This document shows, piece by piece, positions 480-51,275 of a stretch of 51,414 bases of DNA. A program made the position numbers and the translations under genes. The stretch is taken from positions 1-51,414 of IMG/VR virus record IMGVR_UViG_3300008448_000127; one strand, given 5' to 3'. The stretch comes from a virus (Duplodnaviria > Caudoviricetes). How positions within the stretch are numbered: position 1 is the first letter of the stretch; every line of letters begins with the position of its first letter. The notes beneath the pieces are model-generated. The model made no database searches. It was not told the DNA's origin and saw nothing but the letters and a program-made list of their open reading frames with translations.

Positions 480-536
480 TGCATCCCCCCTCGATTCAAG
501 GTTTTTTGTTTTAACACTTTCTGAGGAGAAACAAAG

Positions 537-2417
537 ATGGAAGAGAACGAAGTGTGGTCGAGTGAACCAGCAGACATGGAAGAGGCTATCCTGAATGCTG
601 ATGGAAGAGTGTTTAAGGATAGGTCTAGTAAGATCGTTGATGACATACAGACGTATCACCCTGACGCATCGTGCACAGCAAGATTCCCAGCGTACTCAAC
701 TCATACGGGGTGGTATTATAAGACAAACGGTTTTTTGTATGACCATCAAGAAAGCCCGCACGATCTGGTTTCCGTCAAAATTGAAGCCAGGAAACCAGAG
801 CAGGAAGTCCCTGTTGAGTCTAGTGATAATCCTGATTTTTTACGGTTGTTGTCCTTTGCCAAAGACGAACAATCCGCCGAACTGATTCGGAAAGAGTATG
901 CGAGCTATCGACTACTCGAAACGCTGCACCTCAAGGCCCTGGGATTCACTGGCAAACGCAAAGCAGTAACATGGGAAGCGGCCAGTAAGTTAAAAACATT
1001 GTTGAACCTGGACGCTATGTGTGATTCTGTCCCCTGGGTTATTTCTGAAGGGGAAGACATACACGAAGTATTCGAGGAACACCGTCCTGGTAGCTGCATG
1101 CGAGATGGTTCAAAACACGAATTACGCCAATTGTACGCTTTGAATCCTGACAAGGTGAAGACTGCCCACCATGTTAAAGGGTCGCACGGCTTGCTTCAGT
1201 CCGCTATTTCATGCCTAGTATGGTACGGGAAAGATAAAGTGTATATTGACCGTCGATACACTGACGGTTATCTCCCGATGGTGAAGGAACCGTTAATACG
1301 ATCGCTGGCGAGACAATTGAAGGCTCAAACAGGTAAGGACGTGTTGCTAGTCTGGAAAGGTGACGATATCCCAGGGATTGACACCATCAGCAATGAAGTC
1401 AAATTCACGCTCAACAGGGATTCCGACTTGATGCCCTGGTGTGATTCTATTCGGTACGTGGTGGAATACGATGACGATACGGTTACGCTGTCAACGTCCG
1501 AGAAACGTGGTCGCATATGCTGTCAGGACCAATCTGGTACGGATATTACGGAAAGCCCTTGCAAGTGTTGTTCGTGCGCACGTTCGATTGACGAAGACAA
1601 TTCTAGAACCGACGAATCGGGCAGTGTATATTGCGACGATTGTTACTCTGAAGCCTATTCATACTGCAATTGGTACGAGGAAGACTATTCTGCCGACGAT
1701 GTTTCTGAGGTGAGAATCTATTCTTATGGTTCGGCGTATCAGCATAGACGTGTAACATCTATTCCGGGGTCTAGACATCGTGTGGCAACATGGCATACAA
1801 TACACATTAGTGAATCTGCGTTGTCCGATCATTTCACAGAACTCCAGGACGGGACATATTGCCACAATGATTTAGTTATTGAAGACAATCGTGGTAACTA
1901 TTATGCTCCTGACGATGAGGGGAACTACGTCGTGACAGAAGACGGGGAAACGTACCACCCGGACGACGTTTGTCAGACTGTTGACGATGAAATCCATCCG
2001 ATAGAGAATTGCCAGGAATTGCATGACGGCACATGGTGCCTCTCTGAGCATGCTGTAGAGATTGATGGGAAATGGTATTATGATGACGATCGTTCAGAAC
2101 CTGAACAGTCTTCAGAAGCATCTGATGATGATACTGAGGAACCACAACAGGAAGAACAACAACTGACGGACGGTGGATACGTGGTTCCGGACGGCTATCG
2201 TTTGGCTATTCCTGGTGAGATACTTCCTATAGGTTCCCGCTACTTGTTCGGTTACGGGTATAGTGCACAATGGGATTTAACTGTAGAAGCTGGAAAACCA
2301 TACGGTGAGACATCGTGGCGGCTTCAATTACCTTATATCATTCGGAATGATAGTGCGTCGGTCCCTACTGTAGCATCATTACCCGCCAACAAACTAGAAT
2401 CGAGCGTATCACGATGA
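537..2417 (+). CDS. Large multidomain phage protein: SCM...DRRY...PWCD core, double CxxC zinc ribbon, acidic beta-hairpin-like repeats
   Basis: 626-aa ORF with GAGGAG RBS. Motifs GSCMR, YIDRRY, MPWCDS, CCSC...YCDDC. Confidence 0.85.
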   Translation: MEENEVWSSEPADMEEAILNADGRVFKDRSSKIVDDIQTYHPDASCTARFPAYSTHTGWYYKTNGFLYDHQESPHDLVSVKIEARKPEQEVPVESSDNPDFLRLLSFAKDEQSAELIRKEYASYRLLETLHLKALGFTGKRKAVTWEAASKLKTLLNLDAMCDSVPWVISEGEDIHEVFEEHRPGSCMRDGSKHELRQLYALNPDKVKTAHHVKGSHGLLQSAISCLVWYGKDKVYIDRRYTDGYLPMVKEPLIRSLARQLKAQTGKDVLLVWKGDDIPGIDTISNEVKFTLNRDSDLMPWCDSIRYVVEYDDDTVTLSTSEKRGRICCQDQSGTDITESPCKCCSCARSIDEDNSRTDESGSVYCDDCYSEAYSYCNWYEEDYSADDVSEVRIYSYGSAYQHRRVTSIPGSRHRVATWHTIHISESALSDHFTELQDGTYCHNDLVIEDNRGNYYAPDDEGNYVVTEDGETYHPDDVCQTVDDEIHPIENCQELHDGTWCLSEHAVEIDGKWYYDDDRSEPEQSSEASDDDTEEPQQEEQQLTDGGYVVPDGYRLAIPGEILPIGSRYLFGYGYSAQWDLTVEAGKPYGETSWRLQLPYIIRNDSASVPTVASLPANKLESSVSR

Positions 2418-3361
2418 ATATCATAACACTGGAACAGTACACACACTTTTTGTGTCTGTTGTCTACTGACGACGTTTTCAACCACCTGGAAACAATAGGT
2501 TTTACAGTTCGCCATGCTACCAGCAAAACAAAACGCTATGCCGTTAAACAGGGTAGCAACAAAAACCGTCCGTTGTTGGTCGCACATGCTGATACAGTCC
2601 TGGAATCCAGGGCATACGAATACGATCCCAACACGGGTATTGTCGTATCGTCGGAGTTAGACGATCGTTTAGGTATCGCCATTATGCTGTGCCTGTTACT
2701 TGATGGTATCGACGTATCGTGCCTGATATGTGACAACGAAGAGACTGGCCGAACTACAGCAACACAGTTTATTCGTGAGACTGAATTGACTCCCGTTTGG
2801 TTGACCGAATTCGATCGTCGGGGAATAGACGTTGTTTGCTACGAATATGAAACTCCAATTTTGTGTTCCTTGCTGAAACATTGTGGTTTTACAATTGGTC
2901 AAGGTTCTTTCTCTGACATCAGTAGTATGGAAAGCCTAGGGGTTATTGGTTTTAATGTGGGTGTAGCATACCACAAAGAGCACAGCTTGAAATGCCATGC
3001 TAACCTAAACCAGACGTTAAGCCAGGTTGAACGCTGGTTGTTGTGGTTCGGTTGGTTGTCTAGTGTTCGTCTCGCCCACGAAGAAAAAACGTGGGGCAGG
3101 GCATCGTACGGAAAGTATTACGGATTGTCTACTCGTCTGGACAGCTATATCGTCGATGACTTCCGGGATAGATACGAAAGTAAGATTCTGGATAACCCCA
3201 GGGTAGATGATGCCTGGGACGATGACTTGTTCGATTCTGTAACCGGACTGGAATTGTGCGACCAATGTGGAAACTATTGCGATAGTGAAACAATGTGCGA
3301 CTATTCCGGCGGGACTGTTTGCGAGAACTGTATTGTTGACTTGAAGGGGATGAAATCATGA
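2414..3361 (+). CDS. Zn-dependent M28/M20-like peptidase with C-terminal zinc ribbon
   Basis: Metal-ligand motifs AHADT, LDDRLG, NEETG, EFDRRG, GSFSD, YHKEH. ATGA overlap with the upstream gene. Confidence 0.8.
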   Translation: MNIITLEQYTHFLCLLSTDDVFNHLETIGFTVRHATSKTKRYAVKQGSNKNRPLLVAHADTVLESRAYEYDPNTGIVVSSELDDRLGIAIMLCLLLDGIDVSCLICDNEETGRTTATQFIRETELTPVWLTEFDRRGIDVVCYEYETPILCSLLKHCGFTIGQGSFSDISSMESLGVIGFNVGVAYHKEHSLKCHANLNQTLSQVERWLLWFGWLSSVRLAHEEKTWGRASYGKYYGLSTRLDSYIVDDFRDRYESKILDNPRVDDAWDDDLFDSVTGLELCDQCGNYCDSETMCDYSGGTVCENCIVDLKGMKS

Positions 3362-3609
3362 CGATCATTCAGAATCAATATTGTGCCTCATACGGTCCTG
3401 ACGATACTCTACTGGCTAGTGTTGATGATATCCGGCAGTACGCTGGAAAGTCGGCATTGTCGGCTGTTGACACCCTGGACATTATTTTTGCAAGGAATAC
3501 GATATGGAAACCAAACAGGATTGGAAGCGAATTCACAGCGAGCATTATGCTAAGGGACCAACAACCGAAGAACGAATCGGTATCTTCCTGCTGTTCTTCG
3601 TGCCGATAG
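3358..3609 (+). CDS. Hypothetical protein
   Basis: ATGA-coupled to the peptidase gene; 83 aa. Confidence 0.6.
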   Translation: MTIIQNQYCASYGPDDTLLASVDDIRQYAGKSALSAVDTLDIIFARNTIWKPNRIGSEFTASIMLRDQQPKNESVSSCCSSCR

Positions 3610-3657
3610 TATGGTTGTCGTGCATTGCTTTTGAGTTGTTTGCATAGGGGGATTGTG

Positions 3658-3837
3658 ATGGAATCGGGATACTATTGGGCAAAGTGGAACCATGCCCGCA
3701 TGACGGAAATACTGGTTGTTTTTGTCTCCAGCAATGGTGATTGCTTTGTGTCAGGATCGGATCTACCCTACGATCAGGATTCATTTATTTTTCTTTCCGA
3801 CGAGATACAACCACCATGCAATACGTTGATTGGTTAG
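3658..3837 (+). CDS. Hypothetical protein (MESGYYWAKW...)
   Basis: ATG at 3658 after AGGGGG. The GYYW start is typical of small phage proteins. Confidence 0.6.
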   Translation: MESGYYWAKWNHARMTEILVVFVSSNGDCFVSGSDLPYDQDSFIFLSDEIQPPCNTLIG

Positions 3838-10094: not shown

Positions 10095-10381
10095 GCTCGC
10101 TTCCTTCCTTCGTTCTCTTTCTGGGTCTTATCGTAGTGGCAGGTGATGCACAGGGTTTGGAGGTTTCCATCACAGTCAGGTCCGCCGTCTGCCAGTCCTA
10201 ACCTATGATCCACTTCTAGATTGTATTCAGGGTACGCTTCCTTACATATCTGACAAGTGTACTCATCTCTTTCGAGGATTCGGAATCGGTCTTTGGTTCG
10301 GCCTTTTCGTCGGGACAGGCCGGACTGGTGGGGTAGTGCTTTGTTCGGATTGGGTATCTTGACTGAAGGATAGAGTGACAT
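10091..10381 (-). CDS. HNH endonuclease (possibly terminase-associated)
   Basis: Pattern RDEYTCQIC...EVDH...GG...NLQTLCITCH...KT. Confidence 0.9.
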   Translation of the reverse strand: MSLYPSVKIPNPNKALPHQSGLSRRKGRTKDRFRILERDEYTCQICKEAYPEYNLEVDHRLGLADGGPDCDGNLQTLCITCHYDKTQKENEGRKRA

Positions 10382-11654
10382 TTTCTTCTACCAACCTAAA
10401 GGCATCACGAATCCACTTAGCACACTTCAGGGTTTGAATAGCACGACCACGAGCAGGACGGTTATCGGTATCGTTGGGGATGAAGATACCGAGACTGATC
10501 AGATCATCGATTCGTCTGCTGATTGTTTCCAGAGGGATGGAGCACTGGAAGCTGATAGCAGTCTTGGTCAGACCAGCAGCGGAAAGTGCCACTGTTCGAA
10601 TGATATTATGCTGACGAGAGAATGCTGTGTCCAGTGCAACCTTGGTGAGAAGTGTACGAATCTGCTGAGTAATGGAATCCGTACCCAGGACGTAGCATAG
10701 ACAAAGAGCAAGACGGGACAACTGTTTGACTACGCGAGTTGAGGCTTCTGGGCGAGCATCGTACAGTAGTTCAGAGTTGCCGAACTCTTTGCTCCGAGGT
10801 GCTTGGGCACGGCTACAGGCGATCATATCGGCTAACGCTTGAATGAGATCCACGTCCATGGTGGTATATTTTGGCCGCAGTACGTCATCAGTTCTGATTC
10901 TGGAGTGAAGGAAGCTAAGGAATCCTGCAGTATAGGCCCGTTGCTTCGGGAAGGATCGAGAGTCACCTGCGTCGTTTCCTTCGAAGTTGGTTCGTGCGGT
11001 GGATTCAAAGATAGACTGAACAGCCTTCGAGTTTCTTCTGGTTTCAACATCGCGAGTAGTCTCAAGGCGACAATGAAGGAAACGCTCTCCAAGGGCAGCC
11101 ATATTGAGAGAATAAATCCGTTCAGTAATTCCAATGACCATACCAAATGCGATATTGGTAAACGATGCTGAAACGCCGTTACGGTAATGAGCTTCGAGAC
11201 TGCCATCGAAGATATCACGCAACTCCCCATAAACGTTTGCCAGTTGCTGCGGAGTACTTTCCAGAAGGAGGGTGCCGTCTTTGACCACAACGCACTTTCC
11301 CTGGAGCATTGGTATGAGGTGAGATCCTTGTCGAGAGCCAGAAACCAGTCCGGTAAACTTCGACAGAGGGCGAGTATGCAGTTCATCAGAAGACAGCAGT
11401 TCGCATATAGTCGATTTACCACTGGAAGGTGCTCCTACTAAGTACATCCAAAGAGGGTCACCATCGAATGCAACAGCAATATGAACTGCCATACAAAGTG
11501 CCATACAATCTTCGAGTGACTGTGTAACGCTCATACCGGACTTGTACACTTCCATCAGTTTGTGGAAGGAGTCACAAGCCTGTGGCTGGACTGTTACCAC
11601 TTCGTCCAGTTTAACTTCTGAGAGGTAGGATTTGATCAGTTCGATGAAGTTCAT
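10263..11654 (-). CDS. AAA+ (MCM-like) replicative helicase with C-terminal winged-helix-like region
   Basis: Walker A GAPSSGKST, LRDIFDG, and LGERF (Arg-finger-like). Lies next to primase and PolA. Confidence 0.7.
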   Translation of the reverse strand: MNFIELIKSYLSEVKLDEVVTVQPQACDSFHKLMEVYKSGMSVTQSLEDCMALCMAVHIAVAFDGDPLWMYLVGAPSSGKSTICELLSSDELHTRPLSKFTGLVSGSRQGSHLIPMLQGKCVVVKDGTLLLESTPQQLANVYGELRDIFDGSLEAHYRNGVSASFTNIAFGMVIGITERIYSLNMAALGERFLHCRLETTRDVETRRNSKAVQSIFESTARTNFEGNDAGDSRSFPKQRAYTAGFLSFLHSRIRTDDVLRPKYTTMDVDLIQALADMIACSRAQAPRSKEFGNSELLYDARPEASTRVVKQLSRLALCLCYVLGTDSITQQIRTLLTKVALDTAFSRQHNIIRTVALSAAGLTKTAISFQCSIPLETISRRIDDLISLGIFIPNDTDNRPARGRAIQTLKCAKWIRDAFRLVEENVTLSFSQDTQSEQSTTPPVRPVPTKRPNQRPIPNPRKR

Positions 11655-12280
11655 CGTTTGCGTCCGTTCGTAAATTTCTGGGAAGGAATCAGTGATCCCC
11701 ACTGGTTAGCCATAGCTTCAGCAATACCGGAGTAAGTTATCGATCGTAGCTTACCTCTGTCTGGTGAAGGTGACATCTTCCAGATGTTCTGATCACGCCC
11801 TTCGACTATGTTTGTGGGGGTAAGTGGTGGTAGATTCTTCAACCAAAGGCAGGTTGCTTTTGTCTCACCATGACCGAACATCCAGGGTTGAATGATTTGA
11901 TCTGGTTTGCGATACAAGCGAGACATAATACCGATCGGGTTCTCGATACACAACCTATGGCATTTTAGTTGGGTGCATAACGTAAAGAAGTCAACACCTT
12001 GTTGTCGTAGGATCTGCCCTTCTTCGGCTGTGTACTTCTTGCAGCCATGGGTCATTGCTTTGTTGTTACTGACTGTGAGATACGTACAAGGTGGGTGAGC
12101 AATGATCAGGTGCCAGTGGAGGTTCAGTGCGATTAAACGCTCCAACGGCATCTCGAAGTGCTTCATCTCAAACTCAGACGGTTCTGAGGGTAAGATGTCA
12201 CACGACCAGGCATCGTGCCCACGTCTTCGGAAGGCGTCCCTCACAGCACCGCTGAACTCGCAGGCAACAAGTACACGCAT
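11651..12280 (-). CDS. Phage C5-cytosine DNA methyltransferase-like protein
   Basis: Motifs VLVACEFSG, SCD, HPPCTY (catalytic PC), IENP, QPWMFG. Confidence 0.8.
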   Translation of the reverse strand: MRVLVACEFSGAVRDAFRRRGHDAWSCDILPSEPSEFEMKHFEMPLERLIALNLHWHLIIAHPPCTYLTVSNNKAMTHGCKKYTAEEGQILRQQGVDFFTLCTQLKCHRLCIENPIGIMSRLYRKPDQIIQPWMFGHGETKATCLWLKNLPPLTPTNIVEGRDQNIWKMSPSPDRGKLRSITYSGIAEAMANQWGSLIPSQKFTNGRKR

Positions 12281-12281: not shown

Positions 12282-13052
12282 TCACTTTCCTTGGGAGTTA
12301 TACAGATCGCGGATATCGAACTTGTCAGGAATTTCTGAGTGAGTAGGTACAGTCACCAGTGACCAGTCGATGTACTGGAGAGACTTGATTGTATGCCCTG
12401 ACGATTTCACTCGTCGGGCTACTGACTGCACACCAAGCCTTCCAGCTTCGTCGTTATCAAACAGCAGGACAACGTGCTTGTCTTCCAGCACATGGAGGTA
12501 AGAGCTACTGAAACCAGAGCCACACGTACCAAGGATGTCAGGTTTATCGTAACCTGCTGGTAGTCGTGACCCTGCTTGCTTCATGATCAGGTAGTCGCCA
12601 TGACCTTCAGCAACCCAGACTGTATCAGACCCAGATAATGTTGACAGACCCAAGATACTGCAATTCCAGGGCTTGGGCGAGGCGTAGATAATGCCTGTCG
12701 TGGTATCATATTTGTGGATAGCAACGATGTCGCCCTTCACGTTCCTGACTGGAAACATGAAGTTGGTTCCATCTGACTTGATCCCTTCTGAGCGGAGTAT
12801 AAATGGCTGGACTCCTTTCTTCAGAGTGCAGAAGCGTTTAGCCTGTTGCATCGTAAGTTCTGGGAGTTGAGAGTACCATTCACGCATCAGGGTTAAGGCG
12901 TTACCTGTCTGTTTGCATCGGTAACACTGAAAGACATGTCCTTCATCTTTGCTGACTGAAAGTTTATCTTCAGCACCACACCATAAGCACGACATGATGT
13001 AGTCTTTGTCGGTATCGTTATAGGAGAGTTCAAGGTGGTCAAGTAGTTTCAT
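12282..13052 (-). CDS. DNA primase (zinc finger plus TOPRIM)
   Basis: Motifs CLWC...CYRC, VAEGHGD, LFDNDEAG, DIRD. Confidence 0.88.
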   Translation of the reverse strand: MKLLDHLELSYNDTDKDYIMSCLWCGAEDKLSVSKDEGHVFQCYRCKQTGNALTLMREWYSQLPELTMQQAKRFCTLKKGVQPFILRSEGIKSDGTNFMFPVRNVKGDIVAIHKYDTTTGIIYASPKPWNCSILGLSTLSGSDTVWVAEGHGDYLIMKQAGSRLPAGYDKPDILGTCGSGFSSSYLHVLEDKHVVLLFDNDEAGRLGVQSVARRVKSSGHTIKSLQYIDWSLVTVPTHSEIPDKFDIRDLYNSQGK

Positions 13053-13285
13053 TAGATCATTCCTATGACTAAGCCGCATACGGCACAACGTCTGATATCC
13101 CATGCGTATGCTGGCGTGTCGTAAACTAGTAACTCTACCTGTTGATGGTTACAAGGTTTGCTCATGAACTCTGTTATTTCTTCGGGTGAGGCTTCACGGA
13201 TGTTTGCTGCTCCGCAGTTCCCATCAATTCTTCTAGGTTCATTTGCCGTTTCTATGAAGTACTTCGGTGTGCTAGCTACAGACAT
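13052..13285 (-). CDS. Small Cys-containing hypothetical protein
   Basis: Fills the gap between PolA and primase; CNH...CAVCG. Confidence 0.6.
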   Translation of the reverse strand: MSVASTPKYFIETANEPRRIDGNCGAANIREASPEEITEFMSKPCNHQQVELLVYDTPAYAWDIRRCAVCGLVIGMI

Positions 13286-15261
13286 ATCTTTGTTTCCTTA
13301 TCCCAGCGGTGAGTGATTAAGTTTGCTTCAACAGGGGCATGAATGCCGTATTCGCTTGCCGCCTGTTCCATAAGTGATACGAGGTTACGCACATGCTTCT
13401 TCGGCACACGAACAGGTACTTCGAAATCGACCTCGTCGTGAACTTGGAGTGCAATTCGCCCTTCAGGATATTCTGAGAGAAGATAGTCGTCGCATAGACG
13501 CATGGCACGTTTGACGATGACTCCTTCAGCACCCTGGACAATGTAGTTTACTCCAGCATGTGCCGCTTTCTCAATACGACCTGTCCACTTATTGACATGT
13601 TCTTTGAGTTCCAGTGGGTAGTCACCAAGTGTAAGTACGTATCCCTGTTCGTTGATTAGTTCCTTTGTTTGCTCGATGAAGGCGTGAGCATTAGGGAAGA
13701 GAGTCGTAACAGTGTCCCAGAGACCAGCGATTCCTGCCGTAGCTTCGATCTTCTTAGGAGACGCTCCGAAGACGAACCCGAAATTGACATTCTTCGCAAC
13801 ACGACGCTGGGCCTTTGTTGGTGACTGGCTGTCGGGTACATTGAATATCTTTCTGGCAACGAAGTCATGGGCGTCCCATCCTCTGTTGAAGGCATCCATC
13901 ATTTCCTGTTCATTGGTGACGTTAGCAAAGATACGTAGTTGTAGCTGGGAGTAATCCATTGTTAACCACCACTTGCCAGGAGGTGGTCCGAAGACTGATC
14001 GCATTGACGGTGAAGCCTGCAGCCACTTAGCAATGTCAGGTGCATCGTCTTCGTATGGGTTACCAGCCTTCGTGATATTCTGGGCGTTAGGATTGTTGCT
14101 GCTGAAGCGTGTGGTCTTGGTGCCCACGATGTTGAACGAAGGGTGGATGAAGCCTGATGAACTTCTGGCATGGTAGTACGACTGAAGAGAAGTTAGTTTC
14201 TTCTCATACTTCTTCTTGCTTAGATACGCTCCCAGGAATCGGTGTACAGGACTTCCCGGTTCTGCATCTTCATGCAGTGCGAGGATGGTTTTGGCATCGA
14301 CTGACGGACTTCCTGTTTTGGCTGACTTGGTGATGGGTTCGAGTTTAAGTTTACCGAAGAGGTATTCTCGGAGATTGTGGTCAGTAATGTGATCAATGCC
14401 TGAAAGTTTGCTAGTTTCGGCAGTGAGCAGTTGTATGAATCGTTCACAAGCATCAATTGACTCCTTCAGTTCAGGGATGTTGACCCACAGACCAATAGTT
14501 TCCATCTTCCAGGTAATGTGCTCTACCTGTTTGTTGATCTCCAGTAGTTCCGTAGTCTGTTCACCGTGACGAGATAGTAGTTCGTGGAAATACATTTCAG
14601 CCAGTTCAAACGTATTGACACAGTCCGCTTTAAGATAGCGAAGCATGACGTTCTTGAGGACTGAGTCCGGGAGTTTAGGTCTTCTGGGTTGCGGAATAAG
14701 TGCGAGTACTGCGTCAGGGAGCCAAAAGTCAGATCGGTTCCATTTGCTGGACGATCCGTACATCTTAAATGTTGGGTGATTTCCGTCACGTCTTGCAATG
14801 TCCCACCTGCTGCAGATATCCTGGAGTGCCTTGGTCTCGACGAGTCTTCGGCATTTATTAACGGCATTGATCAGTTCCTTATCTTCCGGGTAACCTTTAC
14901 CTAAGTATTTCTGAGTGAGAACATCAAGTGAAAGTTCGTCAGTGCTACAGTGGAGGTGGGCAAGGATAGTGGTGTCTACGATCCTTTTCCAGAACGAGGC
15001 TTCTGTTGGTTCTTGCCAGTCGTAGATTCCGGCTTCGCAGAGTGCTCTAAGGTCGAAGTGGGCGTTGTGGAAGGAGATGATGTCTGCGTTGTCAAAAGCG
15101 TTTCTAAGAGACTTCGGATGCTCTTTAGTTCTTCGACGAGTGACTGGATCAATTCCAACTGTTGACGATTTGAATGTGGTTCCATCGTAGATTCCAATAC
15201 TGAAGGTGGTGCAGCCATTTCTAAGCCAAAGACCCGTCGTCTCCGTATCTGCTGCAATCAT
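13276..15261 (-). CDS. polA: DNA polymerase family A with 3'-5' exonuclease
   Basis: ExoI DTETTG, ExoII HNAHFD, ExoIII YLKAD, TTRFSSNNPNAQNI, motif A DYSQLQLR, motif B RRVAKNVNFG, motif C VHDE. Confidence 0.95.
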   Translation of the reverse strand: MIAADTETTGLWLRNGCTTFSIGIYDGTTFKSSTVGIDPVTRRRTKEHPKSLRNAFDNADIISFHNAHFDLRALCEAGIYDWQEPTEASFWKRIVDTTILAHLHCSTDELSLDVLTQKYLGKGYPEDKELINAVNKCRRLVETKALQDICSRWDIARRDGNHPTFKMYGSSSKWNRSDFWLPDAVLALIPQPRRPKLPDSVLKNVMLRYLKADCVNTFELAEMYFHELLSRHGEQTTELLEINKQVEHITWKMETIGLWVNIPELKESIDACERFIQLLTAETSKLSGIDHITDHNLREYLFGKLKLEPITKSAKTGSPSVDAKTILALHEDAEPGSPVHRFLGAYLSKKKYEKKLTSLQSYYHARSSSGFIHPSFNIVGTKTTRFSSNNPNAQNITKAGNPYEDDAPDIAKWLQASPSMRSVFGPPPGKWWLTMDYSQLQLRIFANVTNEQEMMDAFNRGWDAHDFVARKIFNVPDSQSPTKAQRRVAKNVNFGFVFGASPKKIEATAGIAGLWDTVTTLFPNAHAFIEQTKELINEQGYVLTLGDYPLELKEHVNKWTGRIEKAAHAGVNYIVQGAEGVIVKRAMRLCDDYLLSEYPEGRIALQVHDEVDFEVPVRVPKKHVRNLVSLMEQAASEYGIHAPVEANLITHRWDKETKICL

Positions 15262-15317
15262 TTTACGTGCTTCCAAATTAGGCGTCTGTGTTTATTGTAA
15301 GGCACGGTAATACTCCG

Positions 15318-16545: not shown

Positions 16546-17526
16546 TTACTTCTCCATTCCAAGGACTTCAGCCAGTTTCTTATAAGTTGCGTCGGCTGAA
16601 TCACCGCAATCCAGTTCCGTAACACCTTCAGGGGTACACCAGGACTTGGCGAGGTAGTACGTTGTTGGTGCCATGCCGATGAATCGACGATCACCCATGG
16701 TTGTTTTCTTCTTGGTCTTTTGGTCAATAGCAACCATGATCTCCTGACCCATGAAGAACATACCGTGCAGGTCTTTACTTACGTACTTCAGAAAGCCCTT
16801 ATCTAGTTCTGGGCGATACTGATCGTAGTCAGGGCCATTAGCGTTCTGCACCGGCTTGAACGTACTGTGAGCAAGCAGGATGACATTCAGACCCTTGGCA
16901 ACAATCTCAAGGATCGTCTTCAGAATTTCTGAGGACCAGAATGCTTCAGCAGCTTTCGTGTAACCAGCGAAATAAGCAGTGAACTCCTTGCTGTCCATGT
17001 CACCATTGAACAGCATGCTGGCACAATGTTGATAGCAAAGATCCTGCAGACCGGAGACAGAGTCGATGACCATTGTCTCGTAGTTGTGCTTCAGGTCACG
17101 GAACCGTTCGAGTGCTAGTTTGCATCGAAGATAACCTGGATGACCTGTTCCTGCCGGAATCTGATCATGAGGAAAGAGCGGGTCAAGTTGAACGATCGGC
17201 ATGTCTTTGCTGACGAGACCCTTTTCCTTGTACAGGTAGATGCCCTGTTCGCCCGATGTCGTAACGAACGCACACTTAGGGAACTTGGCCGCAAGTGTAG
17301 TCTTCCCCATACCTGGAGGACCATAGAACATGATAAATCTGCCATGGGCAACTCGTTCCTCAATCATGTCCTCGAACAGGTTACAGATTCCTGCTTTGAT
17401 TGATGGCAGGTTCTTTAAGTTGTTTGCTGCACTAGGTACGGGCTTTGACGCTGGAGGTTTGTTTGTTGGAGCAGGACGTTGTGGTGGTGCCGGAGCACGT
17501 TTAGCGGGGCGTGTGGGTGTTGTCAT
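16546..17526 (-). CDS. Sak4-like/AAA_24 ATPase (recombination)
   Basis: Motifs YGPPGMGKTT, VIDS, ILLAH, AKS. Confidence 0.85.
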   Translation of the reverse strand: MTTPTRPAKRAPAPPQRPAPTNKPPASKPVPSAANNLKNLPSIKAGICNLFEDMIEERVAHGRFIMFYGPPGMGKTTLAAKFPKCAFVTTSGEQGIYLYKEKGLVSKDMPIVQLDPLFPHDQIPAGTGHPGYLRCKLALERFRDLKHNYETMVIDSVSGLQDLCYQHCASMLFNGDMDSKEFTAYFAGYTKAAEAFWSSEILKTILEIVAKGLNVILLAHSTFKPVQNANGPDYDQYRPELDKGFLKYVSKDLHGMFFMGQEIMVAIDQKTKKKTTMGDRRFIGMAPTTYYLAKSWCTPEGVTELDCGDSADATYKKLAEVLGMEK

Positions 17527-40322: not shown

Positions 40323-42221
40323 TTATTGTGCCTTCAGTCCGCGAATGTCTGTGATCGTCTCAAACTCGGGGTAGAGCCATGCACCAATAGCCATGAGACC
40401 AGCAACAATCCCATCGATCTTATTAGTGGATTTTGACTTGTCGGGTCGTATTTGTCCATCCCGATTGGTCATAATTACAACATTTCCTACCATCCAGTCT
40501 AAGACAGGATGCCCACCATGACTAAATTGGTGATCTGTTACCATGGCTTCTGTGCGACGACATGGTTCATTCATACCGTTAAAGTTCTGAGGGTATTGTC
40601 TTGCAGGAAGACCATACTGATGAAGTGCTTTGTAGATGTACTCAACATTCCATCGGTCAAAGGCTATGCAGCGAACATCTCTGAAGTAAGTGAATAGGCC
40701 AGGGTGGTCATCTTTACCAATCATGGCATCAACGATGCCTTGCTGGTCAATTGTTTTGCCGGGAGACGTTGAGTTGATTAATCCAGCTTCCCACCAAATG
40801 TTGTACGGAAGGTTTTGTTCCTGTGAACGTTGATAGATCGATTCGGCTGGAACCCAACCCCAATGCAGCATGACACCGTACTTAGGGAACCACAAGTTAA
40901 CCGATGCGATGTCACTGACTACAGCATTATCGAATCCAGCGTAGCACTCTTCGTCTCTCAAGAACTCCATCTGCCGAATGTACCATGACCAGTACAGTTG
41001 GTACCGACCAATATAAACATCGACGGATGTCGATCCTCTAAACTTTTCTGAGGAAGCAATGTTATGCCACATCCAGTGACGTGACATCCACTCTTTGATC
41101 GCTTCTATTGACAGTAACGGAGTTTCAGGAGAAGCATTACCATTAGCCCAAACGTAAGAAGGAATCCATGCTGTTTCTGTTTTGGTTCTGATGTTGAGGT
41201 GAAGGCGTAGAAAACGATTCAGCTCAACAGGATTGTTAGCGGCATTACGGACGAGTCTCTGGAAGTAATCTCTGGTGATGGACTTACCATAATTAGGATT
41301 AGCTTTCATCCAGACCTTCTCTGAACGAAAGTCGTCAGACAGATCAGCCTCGTAGATCACCGGCAGGAATGTAGGCTCCCACTGACGATCTGTGGCTATT
41401 GCTTTGGCTTTTTCGTACAGAGTGTTACAAACAGATGGTCGATCGTAATCAGCCGTTGTCGTGTACACAATCAAAGGTTGGCGTCGTGCTCCAGTACCCG
41501 TGAGCATAACGTCAATGAGTTCACTGTTGGGGTGAGCGTGAACTTCATCAATGTACACAAAGTTTGGTGATAACCCGTGCTTAGTATCCGCTACTGACGA
41601 CAGTACCTTGTACATGGAGCCATCAGTGTGCTCAAAAGAACGAGTAGAGCGAAATACTTTCTTGTCTCGCAACCGTCCAATAAGCCTTGGGTTGTTCTCG
41701 ATCATGTACTGTGCGTGTCTAAAGTTGTTAGTAGCCTGCTCAATATCAGCAGCACAGCAAAATGATTGAGCACGTTTCTCCTTGTCAACGAAGAACATAA
41801 TTAAGGATATGATAGCCCCAAATGCCGTAGTTTTCCCGTTTTTTCGTGCTACAAATATGAAGCATTCTCGGTATCTGCGGTAGTCTGTACCTTCTTGTTT
41901 CCAGCAGAATAAGTTTGCGTAGATACAGGACTGCCATTCTTCGGGAATAAACGGAAGACCTGTACTTTCAGCTTCTGGGTAGCAACACTCGTTAACTATA
42001 AATGCAATAATACGATCCCATTCAGCACAGTCAAAGTAGTAACCTTTGGCTGAGACAAATGGATCATATAGCGGTAGTCCACGCAGAAAATCAACAGTCC
42101 TGACTTCTTTCCACTTCCAACCAACCAGTTTGTCATTTTCATACAAAGGTTCGGGAATGTTAAGTTTAGCAGGACCACGTATGTACGCTGACTCCGGTAT
42201 AGTTTCTAGTGGCAGGTCCAT
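40323..42221 (-). CDS. terL: Terminase large subunit
   Basis: Motifs ARKNGKT, YIDEVH, TTA, ANPNYG, FDRW, KIDGIVA. Confidence 0.96.
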   Translation of the reverse strand: MDLPLETIPESAYIRGPAKLNIPEPLYENDKLVGWKWKEVRTVDFLRGLPLYDPFVSAKGYYFDCAEWDRIIAFIVNECCYPEAESTGLPFIPEEWQSCIYANLFCWKQEGTDYRRYRECFIFVARKNGKTTAFGAIISLIMFFVDKEKRAQSFCCAADIEQATNNFRHAQYMIENNPRLIGRLRDKKVFRSTRSFEHTDGSMYKVLSSVADTKHGLSPNFVYIDEVHAHPNSELIDVMLTGTGARRQPLIVYTTTADYDRPSVCNTLYEKAKAIATDRQWEPTFLPVIYEADLSDDFRSEKVWMKANPNYGKSITRDYFQRLVRNAANNPVELNRFLRLHLNIRTKTETAWIPSYVWANGNASPETPLLSIEAIKEWMSRHWMWHNIASSEKFRGSTSVDVYIGRYQLYWSWYIRQMEFLRDEECYAGFDNAVVSDIASVNLWFPKYGVMLHWGWVPAESIYQRSQEQNLPYNIWWEAGLINSTSPGKTIDQQGIVDAMIGKDDHPGLFTYFRDVRCIAFDRWNVEYIYKALHQYGLPARQYPQNFNGMNEPCRRTEAMVTDHQFSHGGHPVLDWMVGNVVIMTNRDGQIRPDKSKSTNKIDGIVAGLMAIGAWLYPEFETITDIRGLKAQ

Positions 42222-47178: not shown

Positions 47179-47215
47179 GCTGGTGGTTTTACTTCAAATG
47201 TTTCTGGAGAAAGAG

Positions 47216-47563: not shown

Positions 47564-48396
47564 CGTTTAACGCAAAGATACTGGCAGACAGTACCAACAC
47601 GCTTGGTAACCGTTTGCTCACAATGGAAATGACTTATCCTCGGTTTGTTCATGCAGAGCATCTGAGGCATAGGATGTTTTCGTTCAACGTAGCATCCAGT
47701 AGGGCTATCCCTGTGGAGAAGATGATTGAGCAGGTAGAGAAGAATCCTGTCATTCCGATTCATTGGGGCAAGGCTCAGCGGGGGATGCAGGCTTACGAGC
47801 AGTTTACTGGTGTTGATGCGAATGAGTGTGTAGATCGATGGTTAACCGCCAGAGACTATGCTCTCGGTGCAGCAGAAGGGATGCTCGATCAAGGTCTGCA
47901 CAAACAGATCATCAATCGCATTCTGGAACCGTGGATGTGGTGTACCGTCATCTGTACCGGCAACATTGGTGCTTGGAATAACTTCTGGGCACTAAGGTGT
48001 CATCCAGAAGCTGAACCGCATATCAGGAAGATTGCGGAAATGACTGAAGGCATTGCTCGAAACAACGTCAGTCATCAACTTGCTGAAGGTGAATGGCATC
48101 TGCCATTGATTGGGTTTGACGGTGACGGTGAACTCAGCTTTGAGGACGCTGTGAAGGTGTCTGCTGGTCGTTGTGCTCGGGTTAGCTACTTAACGCACGA
48201 CGGCCAGAGAGATGTTCAGGCTGATATTGCTTTGCATGATCGATTGATTGCATCAAAGCATTTTAGTCCTACTGAGCACCAGGCACAGAATGTGAGCAAC
48301 TTGGCTTATGGTGCATGGGCTAATGGTAGTCTTGGTGATGGGTGGATGCAGTACAGAAAGACTCTGAAAGGAGAGTATCAGAATGAAAGTAGGTGA
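47560..48396 (+). CDS. thyX: FAD-dependent thymidylate synthase
   Basis: Motifs RHRMFSFNVASSR (RHRx7S), HKQ..NR, LR.HPEA.P.I, H.SP.EH. Confidence 0.92.
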   Translation: MTFNAKILADSTNTLGNRLLTMEMTYPRFVHAEHLRHRMFSFNVASSRAIPVEKMIEQVEKNPVIPIHWGKAQRGMQAYEQFTGVDANECVDRWLTARDYALGAAEGMLDQGLHKQIINRILEPWMWCTVICTGNIGAWNNFWALRCHPEAEPHIRKIAEMTEGIARNNVSHQLAEGEWHLPLIGFDGDGELSFEDAVKVSAGRCARVSYLTHDGQRDVQADIALHDRLIASKHFSPTEHQAQNVSNLAYGAWANGSLGDGWMQYRKTLKGEYQNESR

Positions 48397-49015
48397 TGGG
48401 TATAGACAATTGATGCGAAGTGACATAATTAGCGAAGGTGATGAGTGGTATGACTCTTTCGGTATATGGCACCCTGTAAGTGGAAGTACGATAGGTCAGG
48501 GGTATTGGACCTATGCAGGACGCTGCATAAGACGTAAAACGGAAAATAAAGTTGAGACTTCTCCTGCACCAGAACATACTAAGGAATCCAATCCGAAGGA
48601 TGCCATCGGTAGTACCAAGCCTCCAATTGCCAATGTTCCTCTCTCAGTACTTTCTGAGGTAGGAATGGCACTGGCTGAAGGTCAGTACAAGTATGGAGGG
48701 TACAACTGGCGTGTGATCGGGGTAAGGGCATCAGTCTATTGGGATGCCACATTCCGTCATATCAAGGCTTGGTGGGAAGGTGAGGACGTTGATCCAGACA
48801 GCAAGCTGAGCCATATCACAAAGGCTATCAGTGCTCTGATGGTTTTACGTGATGCTATGATTCAGGATAACTGGACTGATGATCGTCCTCCCAGAAGTAA
48901 GCAGAAGCCTGAAGAGGTTGCTGCGATGTACAAAGAAATGTTGGAACGGTTGAAAAGTCTTCAGCCTGATCCGGTACCGGGATATACTCAGAAAGGAATT
49001 GAAGATGTCAAGTGA
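48383..49015 (+). CDS. DUF5664 (dATP/dGTP diphosphohydrolase-type) domain protein with N-terminal YR...DEW module
   Basis: Pattern NPKDAIG..K.P...VP...G..KYG.YNWR...RH...W..GED.DPDS.LSH. Confidence 0.85.
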   Translation: MKVGDGYRQLMRSDIISEGDEWYDSFGIWHPVSGSTIGQGYWTYAGRCIRRKTENKVETSPAPEHTKESNPKDAIGSTKPPIANVPLSVLSEVGMALAEGQYKYGGYNWRVIGVRASVYWDATFRHIKAWWEGEDVDPDSKLSHITKAISALMVLRDAMIQDNWTDDRPPRSKQKPEEVAAMYKEMLERLKSLQPDPVPGYTQKGIEDVK

Positions 49016-49202
49016 TGAAGGTGCATCGTTTTTACTAGGTGCTGCTTTAATGGGCGTGCTAGTGCTGGTAGTTTGTTCAATCGTACACAAAGGTAGTATG
49101 AACGCTTGGGAGAAGCAGTGCATCGAGTATGGAGCAGCACAGTACAGCCCAACAACAGGTGAATTTGAATGGAAAGAGAAGGTTGAAGATGGCTCGAAAT
49201 GA
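49005..49202 (+). CDS. Small single-TM membrane protein
   Basis: Segment FLLGAALMGVLVLVVCSIV. Confidence 0.7.
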   Translation: MSSDEGASFLLGAALMGVLVLVVCSIVHKGSMNAWEKQCIEYGAAQYSPTTGEFEWKEKVEDGSK

Positions 49203-49389
49203 TGGAGACACAGCAGTGTATGGTGTCAGTGCCCTGAAGACTTTCTGGGCAAAAGCAGATGAAGTAGCTGACGAAATGGGTTTGTCTCGATCAGCAGCCA
49301 TTGTGGATGCCTGTATGAAGCAATGGAAGACAAAGGGTTTAGGGTCAAAAGGTCCAGGTCGTCCTAAGAAGAAAGTGGTGAAGAAATGA
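49189..49389 (+). CDS. Ribbon-helix-helix-like DNA-binding protein with basic GRPKK tail
   Basis: Pattern VYGVS...ADEVADEMGLSRSAAI. Confidence 0.7.
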   Translation: MARNDGDTAVYGVSALKTFWAKADEVADEMGLSRSAAIVDACMKQWKTKGLGSKGPGRPKKKVVKK

Positions 49390-49940
49390 CACAGTACAGA
49401 TTGTTGGATAACACCGTTGATATTATTGAAGCGACTGATGAGTTTTGGGATACTGCAGTACGTAAATGGAAAGTGGTACCGCACCATTTTGTTGGCGAAA
49501 GGTTCTACGCGGTTATCCCGTATCGACGGGCTATTCCTGACCCAGAAAATATTGAGCAAGAATCTGCTGTAGCCCCAGGTGAAGACTGGAGGCTGGTCAA
49601 AGATGATGAGATTGTTCTACCTACCGATGAAAGGAGGTTTGTGAACAACCCCAGGGGGAACTGGTCGTTAGTTACTCCAGGTACTACCTTGCGATCGTTC
49701 ATTGAAGGCGAGTCTGTTACGTACGCACAGATTAAAGAACGGCCTGTATGGAGGTCTGTTGTATTCAGGCGACGTGCTACGAAGAAGATTGTACTCAAGG
49801 AATACCTTGAACGGTACGGTGAGCATTACAGGACTGAATGGCATAATGGGAATGTAGAGAACTGCAAAGGTGCAGGGTTCATTATGCCTGATGAGTCGTG
49901 GCCAACAGGTCAGGAAAGAGAGATTGAGATTACTGCCTAG
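49386..49940 (+). CDS. Hypothetical protein with two tandem YRL/WRL...DE modules
   Basis: Internal repeat is visible in the translation. Confidence 0.8.
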   Translation: MTQYRLLDNTVDIIEATDEFWDTAVRKWKVVPHHFVGERFYAVIPYRRAIPDPENIEQESAVAPGEDWRLVKDDEIVLPTDERRFVNNPRGNWSLVTPGTTLRSFIEGESVTYAQIKERPVWRSVVFRRRATKKIVLKEYLERYGEHYRTEWHNGNVENCKGAGFIMPDESWPTGQEREIEITA

Positions 49941-50252: not shown

Positions 50253-50262
50253 GATTAAGATC

Positions 50263-50772
50263 CTATCGTTTACCGTGTATTGGTGAAAAGCCGTGCTGAT
50301 GTTCTGCTTTTAGTCGGGCGTTAACTGCGGCACGTAAGGATTTGAATCTGCCAAGTTTAATTTGTTGTCTGTCAACGTAGATGTAAGCCAACCATTTGGT
50401 GTGTTGCTTATCCCAAGTAACACCTACGTGCCCAGAAGTGTTGTTGGAGTACAAAGGCATATTCTTCGTATTTTCTTGACGACAAACGTCTCTCAGGTTG
50501 CTTACGCAATTGTTCAACGTGTTTCCGTCTGTATGGTCAATTTCTATGGAAGGCCATTCACCGTGTTCTACAAGCCACACAAGCCTGTGAACTGCGTAGT
50601 TCTTACCAAGTATCTTCATACGCAGATATGGTTTACCTGATTTGTGATCGTAATTCTTACTTCCAAGGGGCTTTAAACCATTTTTCAGTCTACGGTAGAA
50701 CATGCCTTCCTCTTTGAAGTAAGCGTATCTGTTTTCTATCCACTGCAGTATTTGAACGTGTGTAGTCATCAC
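50263..50772 (-). CDS. HNH homing endonuclease with AP2-like domain
   Basis: Motifs HRLVW, IDHTDGNTLNN..SNLR, NTSGHVGV.W...KW.A.I...LG.F. Confidence 0.9.
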   Translation of the reverse strand: MMTTHVQILQWIENRYAYFKEEGMFYRRLKNGLKPLGSKNYDHKSGKPYLRMKILGKNYAVHRLVWLVEHGEWPSIEIDHTDGNTLNNCVSNLRDVCRQENTKNMPLYSNNTSGHVGVTWDKQHTKWLAYIYVDRQQIKLGRFKSLRAAVNARLKAEHQHGFSPIHGKR

Positions 50773-50780
50773 TACTCCTT

Positions 50781-51275
50781 CTACCTAAAATAGGTAATAC
50801 CTTTAATTTCATTTGTTTTAGCGTCAAGTACTTCAAGAGAAACTGCTTCAGGATTCGCCAAATAGTGTATGTCTTTCGGACTCATACCGATCTTCTCCAG
50901 AAGTTTGATCAGCATTGGTTGTTGTTTGGACAGGATGCTGAACCAGGCAGATGGAGCAGAGCCGAGGTAGTTACCTTCATCATCGTATCTGTGTACTACT
51001 TCTCCTTCCTCAGAAAGTTTACGACGGCATTTGTCCAGCAGGACAACGACTTCAACAAGTTCTGAGATGAGAAGTGTGTAAGTGCTAGAGAGGCAGTTGC
51101 GGTTTTCCATGTCAGCGACAATGAAATCCCAGAGTTGCTTCTTTACAGGGTCCGATGCGATACGTTCAGGTAATGTCATGTTCTGGGCAGTACATAGCTC
51201 AGTGCCCGGATCTGGTAAAGGGATACCTGAGAAGTAGTACAGTTCTGTAGCGGACTTACGTTTGGGGCGTGCCAT
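50781..51275 (-). CDS. terS: Terminase small subunit (P27 family-like)
   Basis: Pattern MARPKRK...LW...EEG.V...P.A.......LLEKIGMSP; AGGAG RBS. Confidence 0.8.
   Translation of the reverse strand: MARPKRKSATELYYFSGIPLPDPGTELCTAQNMTLPERIASDPVKKQLWDFIVADMENRNCLSSTYTLLISELVEVVVLLDKCRRKLSEEGEVVHRYDDEGNYLGSAPSAWFSILSKQQPMLIKLLEKIGMSPKDIHYLANPEAVSLEVLDAKTNEIKGITYFR

Follow-up and report, generated by a model that had tools for sequence, protein, structure and literature searches.

The window examined here, the whole 51,414-nt stretch of phage DNA, carries a short word that is frequent on one strand and far rarer on the other, which raises the question of whether the word is a signal in the DNA itself or a by-product of the genes in which it lies and, if it is a signal, what reads it. 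Few DNA signals give a moving enzyme its direction; Chi and KOPS are two of them, and to our knowledge the only polar words documented in phages are Chi accumulations and nick consensus sites.

RESULTS

A word confined largely to one strand

The 7-mer core TTCTGRG occurs 68 times on the plus strand and 9 times on the minus strand of the whole window (Table 1), giving a plus-strand density of about 1.3 copies per kb; the longer form TTTCTGRG occurs 37 and 4 times, respectively. The core sits within a 16-nt consensus (A-N-T-TTCTGRG, four purine-rich positions, and R-A), and a PWM scan at 11 bits returned 68 plus-strand and 5 minus-strand hits, with a null expectation of 5.5 per strand. The two most frequent plus-strand octamers are TTTCTGAG (20 copies) and TTTCTGGG (17 copies). 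TTTCTGRGRARG, expected at 0.04 copies on average from 100 dinucleotide shuffles, is present 10 times on the plus strand and once on the minus strand, within terS, the single exact reverse copy that the original prediction had reported; all of the coordinates given there for motif copies hold. Two further minus-strand cores have good flanks, and the flanks of the remaining six are at background level.

Core copies are distributed along the whole window (4, 5, 12, 4, 11, 5, 5, 8, 5, 6, and 3 in successive 5-kb bins), with a spacing more even than random (coefficient of variation [CV], 0.73 versus 0.97; reached by 0.3% of random placements). No switch of polarity along the 51 kb was seen in the core list or the PWM scan, the word was associated neither with hairpins or start codons nor with any particular part of a gene, and the word sites showed no secondary structure. 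At least 58 of the 68 plus-strand copies fall within ORFs called in this analysis. The record end adjoins terS in four linear records; repeats at 18-112 are compatible with either packaging direction.

Table 1. Positions of the word and of phage genes relevant to it in the window
Feature	Position	Strand	Evidence or remark
TTCTGRG field, 68 copies	519..51187	+	Core list, logo, shuffles, PWM scan
TTCTGRG core starts 1-17	519, 1703, 4069, 4589, 5503, 6810, 8263, 9196, 9462, 10119, 10746, 11616, 11676, 12182, 12333, 12786, 12858	+	
TTCTGRG core starts 18-34	13471, 14078, 14682, 14909, 15666, 16807, 16927, 18770, 20043, 20586, 20630, 21379, 21948, 22143, 22723, 23551, 24325	+	
TTCTGRG core starts 35-51	24796, 24921, 26020, 27489, 27694, 28218, 29052, 30865, 32473, 32686, 33427, 33818, 35101, 35470, 36138, 36173, 37522	+	
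TTCTGRG core starts 52-68	37915, 38559, 39983, 40585, 41046, 41973, 42363, 42618, 45396, 45775, 46470, 47983, 48652, 49243, 50172, 51060, 51181	+	
Exact 12-mer TTTCTGAGGAAG	15665-15676, 41045-41056, 42362-42373, 45395-45406, 46469-46480	+	Also once on -
TTTCTGGGAAG	11675, 36172, 38558, 42617		
Reverse copy, well formed, inside terS	51005..51016	-	
Two further reverse copies with good flanks (cores)	4680-4686, 49541-49547	-	
P-loop protein, 479 aa, Walker A at residue 90	10263..11702	-	Adjoins primase
Primase, 273 aa, candidate reader	12282..13103	-	PHROG 47/239; Pfam Toprim_2; weak dnaG match
Family A DNA polymerase with 3'-5' exonuclease	13276..15276	-	Profile matches
Sak4-like (AAA_24) single-strand annealing protein	16546..17526	-	Profile matches
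Resolvase-like ORF	18591-18938		PHROG match
HNH endonucleases	22672-23136; 50263-50772		Profile matches
Large terminase subunit (TerL)	40323..42221	-	Profile match
DUF559 endonuclease	45272-45709		Profile match
Small terminase subunit (terS)	50781..51380	-	34 nt from the record's right end

The word is selected at the nucleotide level

TTCTGRG, within its 16-nt consensus, is a selected nucleotide-level signal that is independent of reading frame and gene direction. When synonymous codons were permuted within genes and the proteins kept, the plus strand retained 21.9±3.5 copies (maximum, 32 in 300 shuffles) versus the 68 observed, which leaves an excess of about 46 copies and places the observed count 13 SD above the expectation; the minus strand was expected to hold 7.6±2.0 copies and holds 9. 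Whole-codon permutation gave 14.9±3.1 copies on the plus strand. With about 80% of the genes on the minus strand, coding therefore accounts for part of the raw strand bias (about 22 versus 8).

Codon usage and common dipeptides (Pro-Glu and Ser-Glu) in genes lying mostly on one strand could in principle produce such a bias: 41 of the 58 copies in minus-strand genes share the frame xxC-YCA-GAA, protein-keeping shuffles still yield the difference between strands just given, and in wider relatives (TerL 55 to 70% identical) TTTCTGR occurs at 0.25 to 0.73 per kb, near the codon-based expectation (0.5 per kb or less in 10 of 25 such loci). Against this, all three reading frames are enriched (7, 10, and 41 copies observed versus 1.0, 5.4, and 8.3 expected), and the flanking A residues at -3 and +12 are frame independent, each being present at 16 of 26 sites off the main frame, where wobble would predict 28%. 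The choice of synonymous codon is also context specific: the base before an in-frame YCA-GAA is C at 40 of 55 occurrences, compared with 28% overall and 18% before YCA-nonGAA, and many TTCTGGG sites in the window amount to silent T-to-C substitutions next to a Pro-Glu that is conserved. Enrichment in plus-strand genes, moreover, follows the genome strand and not the coding strand. These genes hold 6 plus-strand copies versus 2.6 expected (reached in 2 of 500 shuffles) and 3 minus-strand copies versus 1.6, and the minus-strand genes hold 59 plus-strand copies versus 14.8 (reached in none of 500). A PWM trained only on sites from the minus-strand gene blocks found 11 plus-strand and 4 minus-strand hits in the 10.9 kb outside those blocks (null, about 1.2), and the flank model carries over to the sites in the plus-strand region and to relatives. 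With five genomes pooled, TTTCTGR occurred on the motif strand 22 times versus 8.4 expected in plus-strand genes and 126 times versus 52.8 in minus-strand genes; the corresponding values for the other strand were 10 versus 7.9 and 21 versus 27.8. We consider a pure coding by-product very improbable. The original prediction had proposed a directional DNA signal rather than a codon pattern and had named the codon-preserving shuffle beforehand; its proposal is borne out by the shuffles, frames, flanks, and wobble choice and by the plus-strand copies in genes of both directions, small as the numbers in plus-strand genes are.

The word persists in relatives while its sites turn over

With the large terminase subunit as the anchor for finding relatives, related IMG/VR phages proved to carry the same polar word at about 0.5 to 1 copy per kb on one strand; judged from their sequences, the word marks one strand across an entire family of freshwater phages, all uncultured. 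TTTCTG, and with it CTG, is constant across lineages and the bases that follow are lineage specific, the conserved word being at least 7 nt long. The seventh base is G in the window, A in relative G313, and mixed in G001, and it differs between phages whose TerL proteins are 76% identical; such variation among close relatives suggests a fast-evolving, hence phage-encoded, reader. TTT-CTGR was polar in all seven tabulated sources with a primase at least 55% identical (the window and six loci), and polarity was absent from two loci with a primase 47% identical (L092 and L093). Even spacing was not found in G002, G003, G004, G007, or G009.

Conservation in relatives, which the original prediction had suggested testing at synonymous positions, extends to the polar word and to few of its sites: 4 of 38, 5 of 30, 4 of 21, 2 of 23, 2 of 21, and 4 of 17 were positionally conserved in comparisons with six relatives. 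Since few positions are conserved while the word persists, it is the density that is maintained, not the individual sites, and word sites turn over fast.

DISCUSSION

A word held on one strand regardless of gene direction points to a signal for an enzyme that moves along, or copies, the strand bearing it, with the phage primase as the likeliest candidate. Among the candidate readers listed in the original prediction, a primase or a Chi-like system fits best. If a ParB-like or RHH protein, also on that list, simply bound the duplex, the near-uniform orientation of the copies would be left unexplained; the putative ParB-like ORF (19242-20489) had no match in Pfam or NCBIfam at the thresholds used.

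We tentatively favor the possibility that the phage's zinc-finger/Toprim primase uses the word, on the lagging-strand template, as its starting point. The 273-aa primase has an N-terminal zinc-binding motif, CxxC (39-42)...CxxC (60-63), and a Toprim domain and is conserved in relatives; with the family A polymerase and the adjoining 479-aa P-loop protein, it counts in favor of a reader in the phage's own replisome. The P-loop protein, a putative replicative helicase, had no family match in profile searches (PHROG, Pfam, and NCBIfam) and is 62 to 73% identical in relatives. At the word, this primase would begin the primers of the lagging strand, for which the marked strand would serve as template, and replication would run one way through the whole genome, from a terminal origin or by rolling circle. 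In this model, initiation would take place at the invariant trinucleotide CTG, whose 3' G would be cryptic; the preceding TTT would be copied into the opening bases of a primer beginning AGAAA, and the purine-rich 3' flank may be contacted by the zinc-binding domain and coevolve with it. A recognition word of this length is rare by chance, so the phage would have to write it into its own genes, at roughly the spacing of Okazaki fragments.

Each element of this proposed anatomy has a counterpart in known primase sites, which are strand specific and read on a single-stranded template. Proteobacterial DnaG is reported to initiate at d(CTG), from the middle base, with specificity set by the zinc-binding domain (ZBD) (PMC2978363), and the T7 gp4 primase is described as recognizing 5'-GTC-3' with a cryptic 3' base, copying the 5' neighbors into the primer, and needing additional 3' nucleotides for optimal recognition (PMC2910064). 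An 8-nt recognition sequence is given for the PrimPol of phage NrS-1 (PMC8718748). Characterized ZBD/Toprim primases, however, require only a trinucleotide (PMC2910064 and PMC2978363); known sites of the class, with the pentamer forms of T7 included, span 3 to 5 nt. No enrichment would then be required, and the word here is longer and is a candidate site only.

At 4-fold degenerate sites of the close clade, the motif strand has more G than C in both gene directions (0.07 to 0.29), a skew that in replication typically marks the strand spending more time single stranded; the 4-fold GC skew of the less closely related G312 and G313 tracks the genes and not the motif strand. We know of no precedent for an 8- to 16-nt site in the ZBD/Toprim class, nor of a genome-wide written word tied experimentally to such primases. 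No covariation of ZBD residues with the motif variant was found among 23 primases, and no replication origin was identified in the window. Observations that speak against a primase are that the implied fork would run head-on to about 80% of the genes, together with the missing polarity in L092 and L093, the gene-bound skew in G312 and G313, and the lack of even spacing in five relatives. In its strongest form, which we offer as a doubtful extension, a T7-type zinc-finger/Toprim primase would have evolved a word of at least 8 nt, written genome-wide at about Okazaki spacing, that limits lagging-strand priming to phage DNA (self/nonself discrimination), with word and primase coevolving between lineages.

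Another reading, which we find distinctly doubtful, is that a host helicase-nuclease of the RecBCD/AddAB type recognizes TTCTGRG or its complement CYCAGAA, a single orientation serving to halt degradation of linear or rolling-circle DNA and to promote recombination-dependent growth. The closest documented precedent points this way: coliphage LLS is reported to have 23 Chi sites, 20 of them actively oriented, at one per 1.86 kb, and Pseudomonas phage MD8 to have 32 in one direction and none in the other, with Chi as its commonest octamer (PMC12315714). As there, the word is short, asymmetric, and present once per 1 to 2 kb in one orientation across genes; it yields the two commonest octamers, is kept against codon shuffles, and maintains its density at fairly even spacing while sites turn over. 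The G-rich strand carries the word here, as the G-rich leading strand carries Chi in bacteria. Those phages, as described, use the known Chi of their host, cluster it toward one end, and lack recombination genes, Chi-rich lambdoids being presented as a class without a Rec module (PMC12315714), whereas here the copies are not piled toward one end, the Sak4-like protein and the resolvase match give the phage recombination genes of its own, and the word drifts among close relatives, its seventh base changing at a pace beyond any known for Chi specificity. A search of candidate hosts, suggested in the original prediction, brought no support: the sole pointer to a host is a metagenome-assembled genome (MAG) titled Caulobacter into which a contig of a relative was binned, and in this MAG the word shows no enrichment (384/326 versus 315/303 for the control), and none of 301 Pseudomonadota genomes comes near the phage density (maximum, about 0.14 per kb). 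The putative Caulobacter Chi is GCGGTGGT (PMC5443536).

It is unlikely that the word is recognized by a phage nicking enzyme that interrupts one virion strand, as in T5, phiKMV-like, and tf/LUZ24-like phages. In phage tf, 14 nicks are reported, all on the top strand and within TACT/RTGMC, in a genome whose genes form two convergent sets; its relatives have 8 or 9 sites on one strand only, and nickase-site coevolution was proposed (PMC3517423). The word shares with these interruptions a one-strand consensus (7 to 19 nt in the known cases) that varies between relatives and, as in the tf group, disregards gene direction, and the window encodes two HNH endonucleases and a DUF559 endonuclease. In contrast, the known cases have 4 to 14 major nicks at conserved positions, similar between phages in the LUZ24 group (PMC3517423), while 68 putative sites would cut the strand into pieces of about 0.75 kb and turn over rapidly, with 4 of 38 kept. 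A high, even density of nicks would bring no benefit that we know of.

A polar roadblock seems similarly improbable, in which a phage protein on an asymmetric 16-bp site would block or guide a one-way machine in a stoperator- or Ter-like manner, for example, by silencing rightward transcription altogether, early and antisense alike. Information spread over about 16 bp, with the A at +12 about one helical turn from the core, would suit a two-groove contact; the sites lack secondary structure, and several copies in the plus-strand arms lie just before plus-strand gene starts (519, before the ATG at 537, and 47202). Nearly all sites, however, are within coding sequence and in every frame, a costly arrangement for a regulator; regulators usually need few sites, and no candidate binding protein was found. 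Stoperators of Cluster A mycobacteriophages are asymmetric, mostly intergenic, and oriented with transcription; the word does not fit this repressor type, as at least 58 of the 68 copies are in ORFs and orientation follows the genome strand. KOPS/SRS, which orient the DNA translocases FtsK/SpoIIIE, are likewise polar and purine/G rich, but on a chromosome replicated in both directions they are described as flipping at its origin and terminus, and as being read by a gamma domain (PMC3384302); no flip occurs over the 51 kb, and a scan of 57 ORFs of the window brought up no FtsK-like or gamma-domain match.

The word differs from the documented Chi and nick consensus words, and it shows measurable synonymous-site selection together with lineage-specific drift. 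If a host nuclease reads it, the word would predict the Chi of the host and aid host assignment of metagenomic phages. If the primase reads it, a 273-aa protein and a 12- to 16-nt oligonucleotide would offer an experimentally easy handle on how primases come by long specificity, and the direction of replication of uncultured phages could be deduced from their genomes alone; should a long-word primase prove true, strand-polar genome words would be a general trait, hitherto undescribed, among phages with a primase of their own.

A strand-polar word in the viral genome

An unbiased k-mer count gave the heptamer TTCTGRG as the repeated unit, with 68 copies on the plus strand of the window and 9 on the minus strand; the two commonest plus-strand octamers were TTTCTGAG and TTTCTGGG. 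All coordinates listed in the original prediction, which had proposed a directional DNA signal, proved correct on recount. In a logo of the 68 sites, the word reaches about 16 nt, with A at position -3 in 41 sites and T at -1 in 37; the 3' side is purine-rich from +7 to +10, with R at +11 in 57 and A at +12 in 46. The 68 copies are spaced more evenly than random (CV, 0.73 versus 0.97), a regularity reached by 0.3% of 5,000 placements; among related viral records, the same test was marginal in G001, G315, and G312 and showed no effect in five others. Clustering at gene ends was ruled out by the flat counts per gene decile (5, 9, 3, 8, 2, 4, 7, 5, 5, and 10). No hairpins were found beside the sites, where folding energies were the same as random, and a role as ribosome-binding sites for antisense open reading frames (ORFs) was rejected, as an ATG lay 9 to 20 nt downstream of 0.29 of sites versus 0.21 for random positions and the ORFs were short.

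Selection on the sequence itself

Coding accounts for a 22-to-8 strand bias but not for the remainder. When synonymous codons were permuted within genes, keeping the proteins, the plus strand held 21.9±3.5 copies, with a maximum of 32 in 300 runs, against 68 observed; the word is enriched beyond the codon-preserving expectation, the check by which the original prediction was to stand or fall. Whole-codon permutation gave 14.9±3.1 plus-strand copies. In minus-strand genes, where the word reads CYCAGAA, 7, 10, and 41 copies began at codon positions 1, 2, and 3, versus 1.0, 5.4, and 8.3 in the protein-preserving shuffle, so that every frame is enriched. The favored frame, xxC-YCA-GAA, is the cheapest spelling of the word. 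The base preceding in-frame YCA-GAA was C in 40 of 55 cases, while C occupies 28% of all wobble positions and precedes YCA in 18% of cases when a codon other than GAA follows. In orthologue alignments, many window sites read xxC-CCA-GAA where relatives have xxT-CCA-GAA, without a change of amino acid (His, Asp, Ile, or Arg). The flanking A at -3 and that at +12 were equally frequent outside the main frame (16/26 each), and wobble T in minus-strand genes, which is A on the plus strand, stands at only 28%. It is the DNA (or RNA) sequence that is under selection, and a pure coding artifact is scarcely credible as the source of the bias.

The polarity tracks the genome strand. In plus-strand genes of the window, TTCTGRG occurred 6 times on the plus strand versus 2.6 expected (6 was reached by 2 of 500 shuffles) and 3 times on the minus strand versus 1.6. 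For TTTCTGR, pooled over the window and the four relatives possessing plus-strand arms, plus-strand genes held 22 copies on the motif strand (the window plus strand, opposite terL) and 10 on the opposite strand, where 8.4 and 7.9 were expected; the minus-strand genes held 126 and 21, versus 52.8 and 27.8 expected, respectively. Two models were trained on sites in the minus-strand blocks. The flank-only model gave the nine plus-strand sites outside those blocks an average score of +4.1 bits, positive in eight of them, against a background of -3.7; the nine minus-strand copies averaged -1.1, with just three well formed (4680, 49541, and 51009). The full position weight matrix matched 57 plus-strand positions and 1 minus-strand position within the blocks; in the remaining 10.9 kb it matched 11 and 4, respectively, against a null of 5.5 per strand genome-wide. 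Polarity is purer in the minus-strand block (98%) than in the plus-strand arms (73%). That polarity follows the genome strand speaks against a signal acting on mRNA or on the template strand. The general inference of a directional DNA signal stands: the word is real, selected, and strand-polar.

Orientation bias can also arise from avoidance of type III restriction, as in T7 and EcoP15I. This does not explain the over-representation, and the opposite orientation is not depleted (9 versus 7.6 expected and 4 versus 4.0).

Conservation and turnover among relatives

A TerL search recovered 27 IMG/VR loci at 74 to 81% identity, and in their 311 kb the word occurred 210 times opposite the terL strand and 59 times on the other. 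Whole-record counts (motif/other strand) were 37/9 in G001, 21/4 in G002, 27/5 in G003, 24/4 in G004, 26/6 in G005, 28/7 in G007, 10/4 in G008, 18/2 in G009, and 7/2 in G010. For the minus-strand genes of G001, G003, and G004, the observed count was reached by none of 200 protein-preserving shuffles each; the effect was weak in G002 (14 versus 8.9). Under the window-trained flank model, motif-strand sites in relatives scored +0.3 to +2.6, and opposite-strand copies scored -3 to -8. Among wider relatives (TerL identity, 55 to 70%), the bias weakens and approaches the level expected from codons.

The sites turn over, and their density is maintained. Only 4 of 38 alignable window sites are kept in G001, and 5/30, 4/21, 2/23, 2/21, and 4/17 are kept in five other relatives at 63 to 69% nucleotide identity. 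Few sites fall in alignment gaps (3/38 in G001, 0/30 in G002, 0/21 in G003, 2/23 in G004, 1/21 in G007, and 0/17 in G009), which indicates that sites arise through substitution; an origin by mobile 12-mer insertion was rejected on this ground. TTTCTG is constant across lineages, and the later bases vary: in the window, GAG and GGG endings are used equally (32/4 and 36/5), in the G001 group GAG is joined by GGA and GAA, and the ending is GAAG in G313 and loci L074 and L075 and GGG in L088.

Other words were noted as well. In the more remote L074, L075, L088, L089, L091, and G313, the strand that carries TTTCTG also bears a second polar word, GATTTTTTGG. GATTTTTT is found 7 to 10 times per locus, and never on the other strand, in distant relatives (8/0 in G313); the window has 2/0, and the close clade (the window with G001 to G004, G007, G009, G314, and G315) is nearly without it. 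In G002 and locus L068, one strand carries some 20 copies of GATGGCAGTGGC and the k-mers overlapping it (GGCAGTGG, 21/1), which probably belong to a repetitive coding segment. The strong strand bias of CAGCAGC (G001, 30/8; G004, 19/2; G007, 14/4) probably comes from repeated Leu/Ala codons on the coding strand.

The candidate relative G006 was rejected, as it has ThyX alone in common and no bias (10/8). Three distant primase homologues (L094, L104, and L096; 22 to 31% identity) have TTCTGG-like polar words in 10 to 20 kb; they were not counted because the whole-record bias is regional and common to the reversed control.

Genome content of the window

The 51,414-bp record is classed as linear, with a CheckV completeness estimate of 98%. 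A crude ORF call places about 39 kb of coding sequence on the minus strand and about 9 kb on the plus strand; PHROG, Pfam, and NCBIfam scans covered 49, 35, and 12 ORFs, respectively.

Principal features of the window
Feature	Position	Strand	Remarks
Long minus-strand block	6771-46751	-	Replication and structural genes
P-loop protein	10263-11702	-	Replication genes, minus-strand block
Methyltransferase	11651-12280	-	PHROG 757; no Pfam or NCBIfam match
Primase	12282-13103	-	273 aa; CxxC...CxxC, then Toprim
PolA	13276-15276	-	Replication genes, minus-strand block
MazG	16190-16543	-	Replication genes, minus-strand block
Sak4-like protein	16546-17526	-	Replication genes, minus-strand block
Resolvase-like protein	18591-18938	-	Replication genes, minus-strand block
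Cassette	21927-24060		GT2 glycosyltransferase, HNH endonuclease, radical-SAM protein; in minus-strand block
Major head protein	36247-37770	-	Structural genes, minus-strand block, with protease and portal
TerL	40323-42221	-	Structural genes, minus-strand block
Plus-strand arms	144-6480, 44857-45709, 47156-49940	+	Peptidase, DUF559 endonuclease, ThyX, dATP/dGTP diphosphohydrolase-like protein
TerS	50781-51380	-	Right end, beside an HNH endonuclease

ThyX and the PF18909 dATP/dGTP diphosphohydrolase-like protein (47554-49015), along with MazG, GT2, and the radical-SAM protein, suggest that nucleotide pools are altered or that the DNA is modified; none of the ORFs scanned gave a PurZ-like (adenylosuccinate synthetase) match. 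The methyltransferase, flanked by the P-loop protein and primase genes, had a tblastn counterpart in none of 11 relative records. The window has the highest motif density of the genomes and is the sole close-clade member rich in TTCTGGG. Its cassette region (20577-25108) has the top local density (11 copies in the 20- to 25-kb bin), is missing from the rest of the close clade, and is found in the distant G312 and G313 at 49 to 60% identity. A tRNA scan of the window found none, megablast of 8 kb of it against the INPHARED phage collection gave no match, and a 626-aa ORF had no relatives in viral contigs. Window DNA occurs in 20 sequencing runs, all as Logan contigs with shares of ≤0.11; none of the runs listed is of RNA.

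Strand asymmetry and record ends

At 4-fold degenerate sites of the window and close clade, the motif strand has G>C in both plus-strand (0.14 to 0.26) and minus-strand (0.07 to 0.29) genes; AT skew flips with gene direction. In the established reading of replication skew, a strand with G>C is the one more often single-stranded, which in one-way replication is the lagging-strand template, and the motif strand is read accordingly as more often single-stranded. GC skew goes with the genes instead in G312 and G313, which are more distant.

Four independent linear records (the window, G001, G002, and G313) stop about 35 to 150 nt upstream of terS; those of G003 and G312 read through that end point. 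Four of the 10 window copies of A(C/G)TGAACA lie in the first 112 nt (18, 29, 93, and 105). Judging from these sequence features, a packaging site or physical terminus probably lies at the window end near terS or at 18 to 112. Comparison of the first 1,500 nt with the last 1,500 nt showed no terminal repeat.

Candidate readers of the word

We tentatively favor the phage primase as the protein that reads the word. It has a CxxC...CxxC motif followed by a Toprim domain, an architecture in which template reading is described as the task of the zinc-binding domain (PMC2910064, PMC2978363). An 8-nt site is on record for the NrS-1 phage PrimPol (PMC8718748). Known sites of this primase class are, however, just 3 to 5 nt long. 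Nor did zinc-finger residues covary with the word variant; polar bias was missing at two loci whose primase is 47% identical, and a fork running in the implied direction would collide head-on with most transcription. The primase and packaging modules travel together in every relative found, so that the word may track either.

A Chi-like signal of the host is unlikely, although by density, rank, and orientation the nearest documented parallel is the Chi-rich phages LLS and MD8; these are described as lacking recombination genes and having Chi piled up at one end (PMC12315714), and the present phage differs on both counts. The only hint of a host is a relative's contig binned in a metagenome-assembled genome titled Caulobacter, where the word is not enriched; for Caulobacter itself, another word is the putative Chi (PMC5443536). 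Among 301 Pseudomonadota genomes, none came near the phage density. In several such genomes (e.g., G215, G304, G135, G277, and G283), the first 13 TTTCTGRG copies among the matches listed all lie on one strand over hundreds of kilobases, and strand totals are balanced; it is there a strongly replichore-polar, G+T-rich word that is not over-represented.

Nick sites are improbable: in T5, tf, and phiKMV-type phages the nick consensus is likewise a one-strand word, but its sites are described as few and positionally conserved (PMC3517423). Recognition by a polar binding protein is equally doubtful.

Were the primase the reader, the TTT of the word would template the primer, CTG would be the initiation trinucleotide with a cryptic G, and the 3' flank would follow. 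Such an anatomy would parallel the pentamer sites of T7 and the d(CTG) at which proteobacterial DnaG initiates, and a primase of the G313 type would prefer TTCTGAAG.
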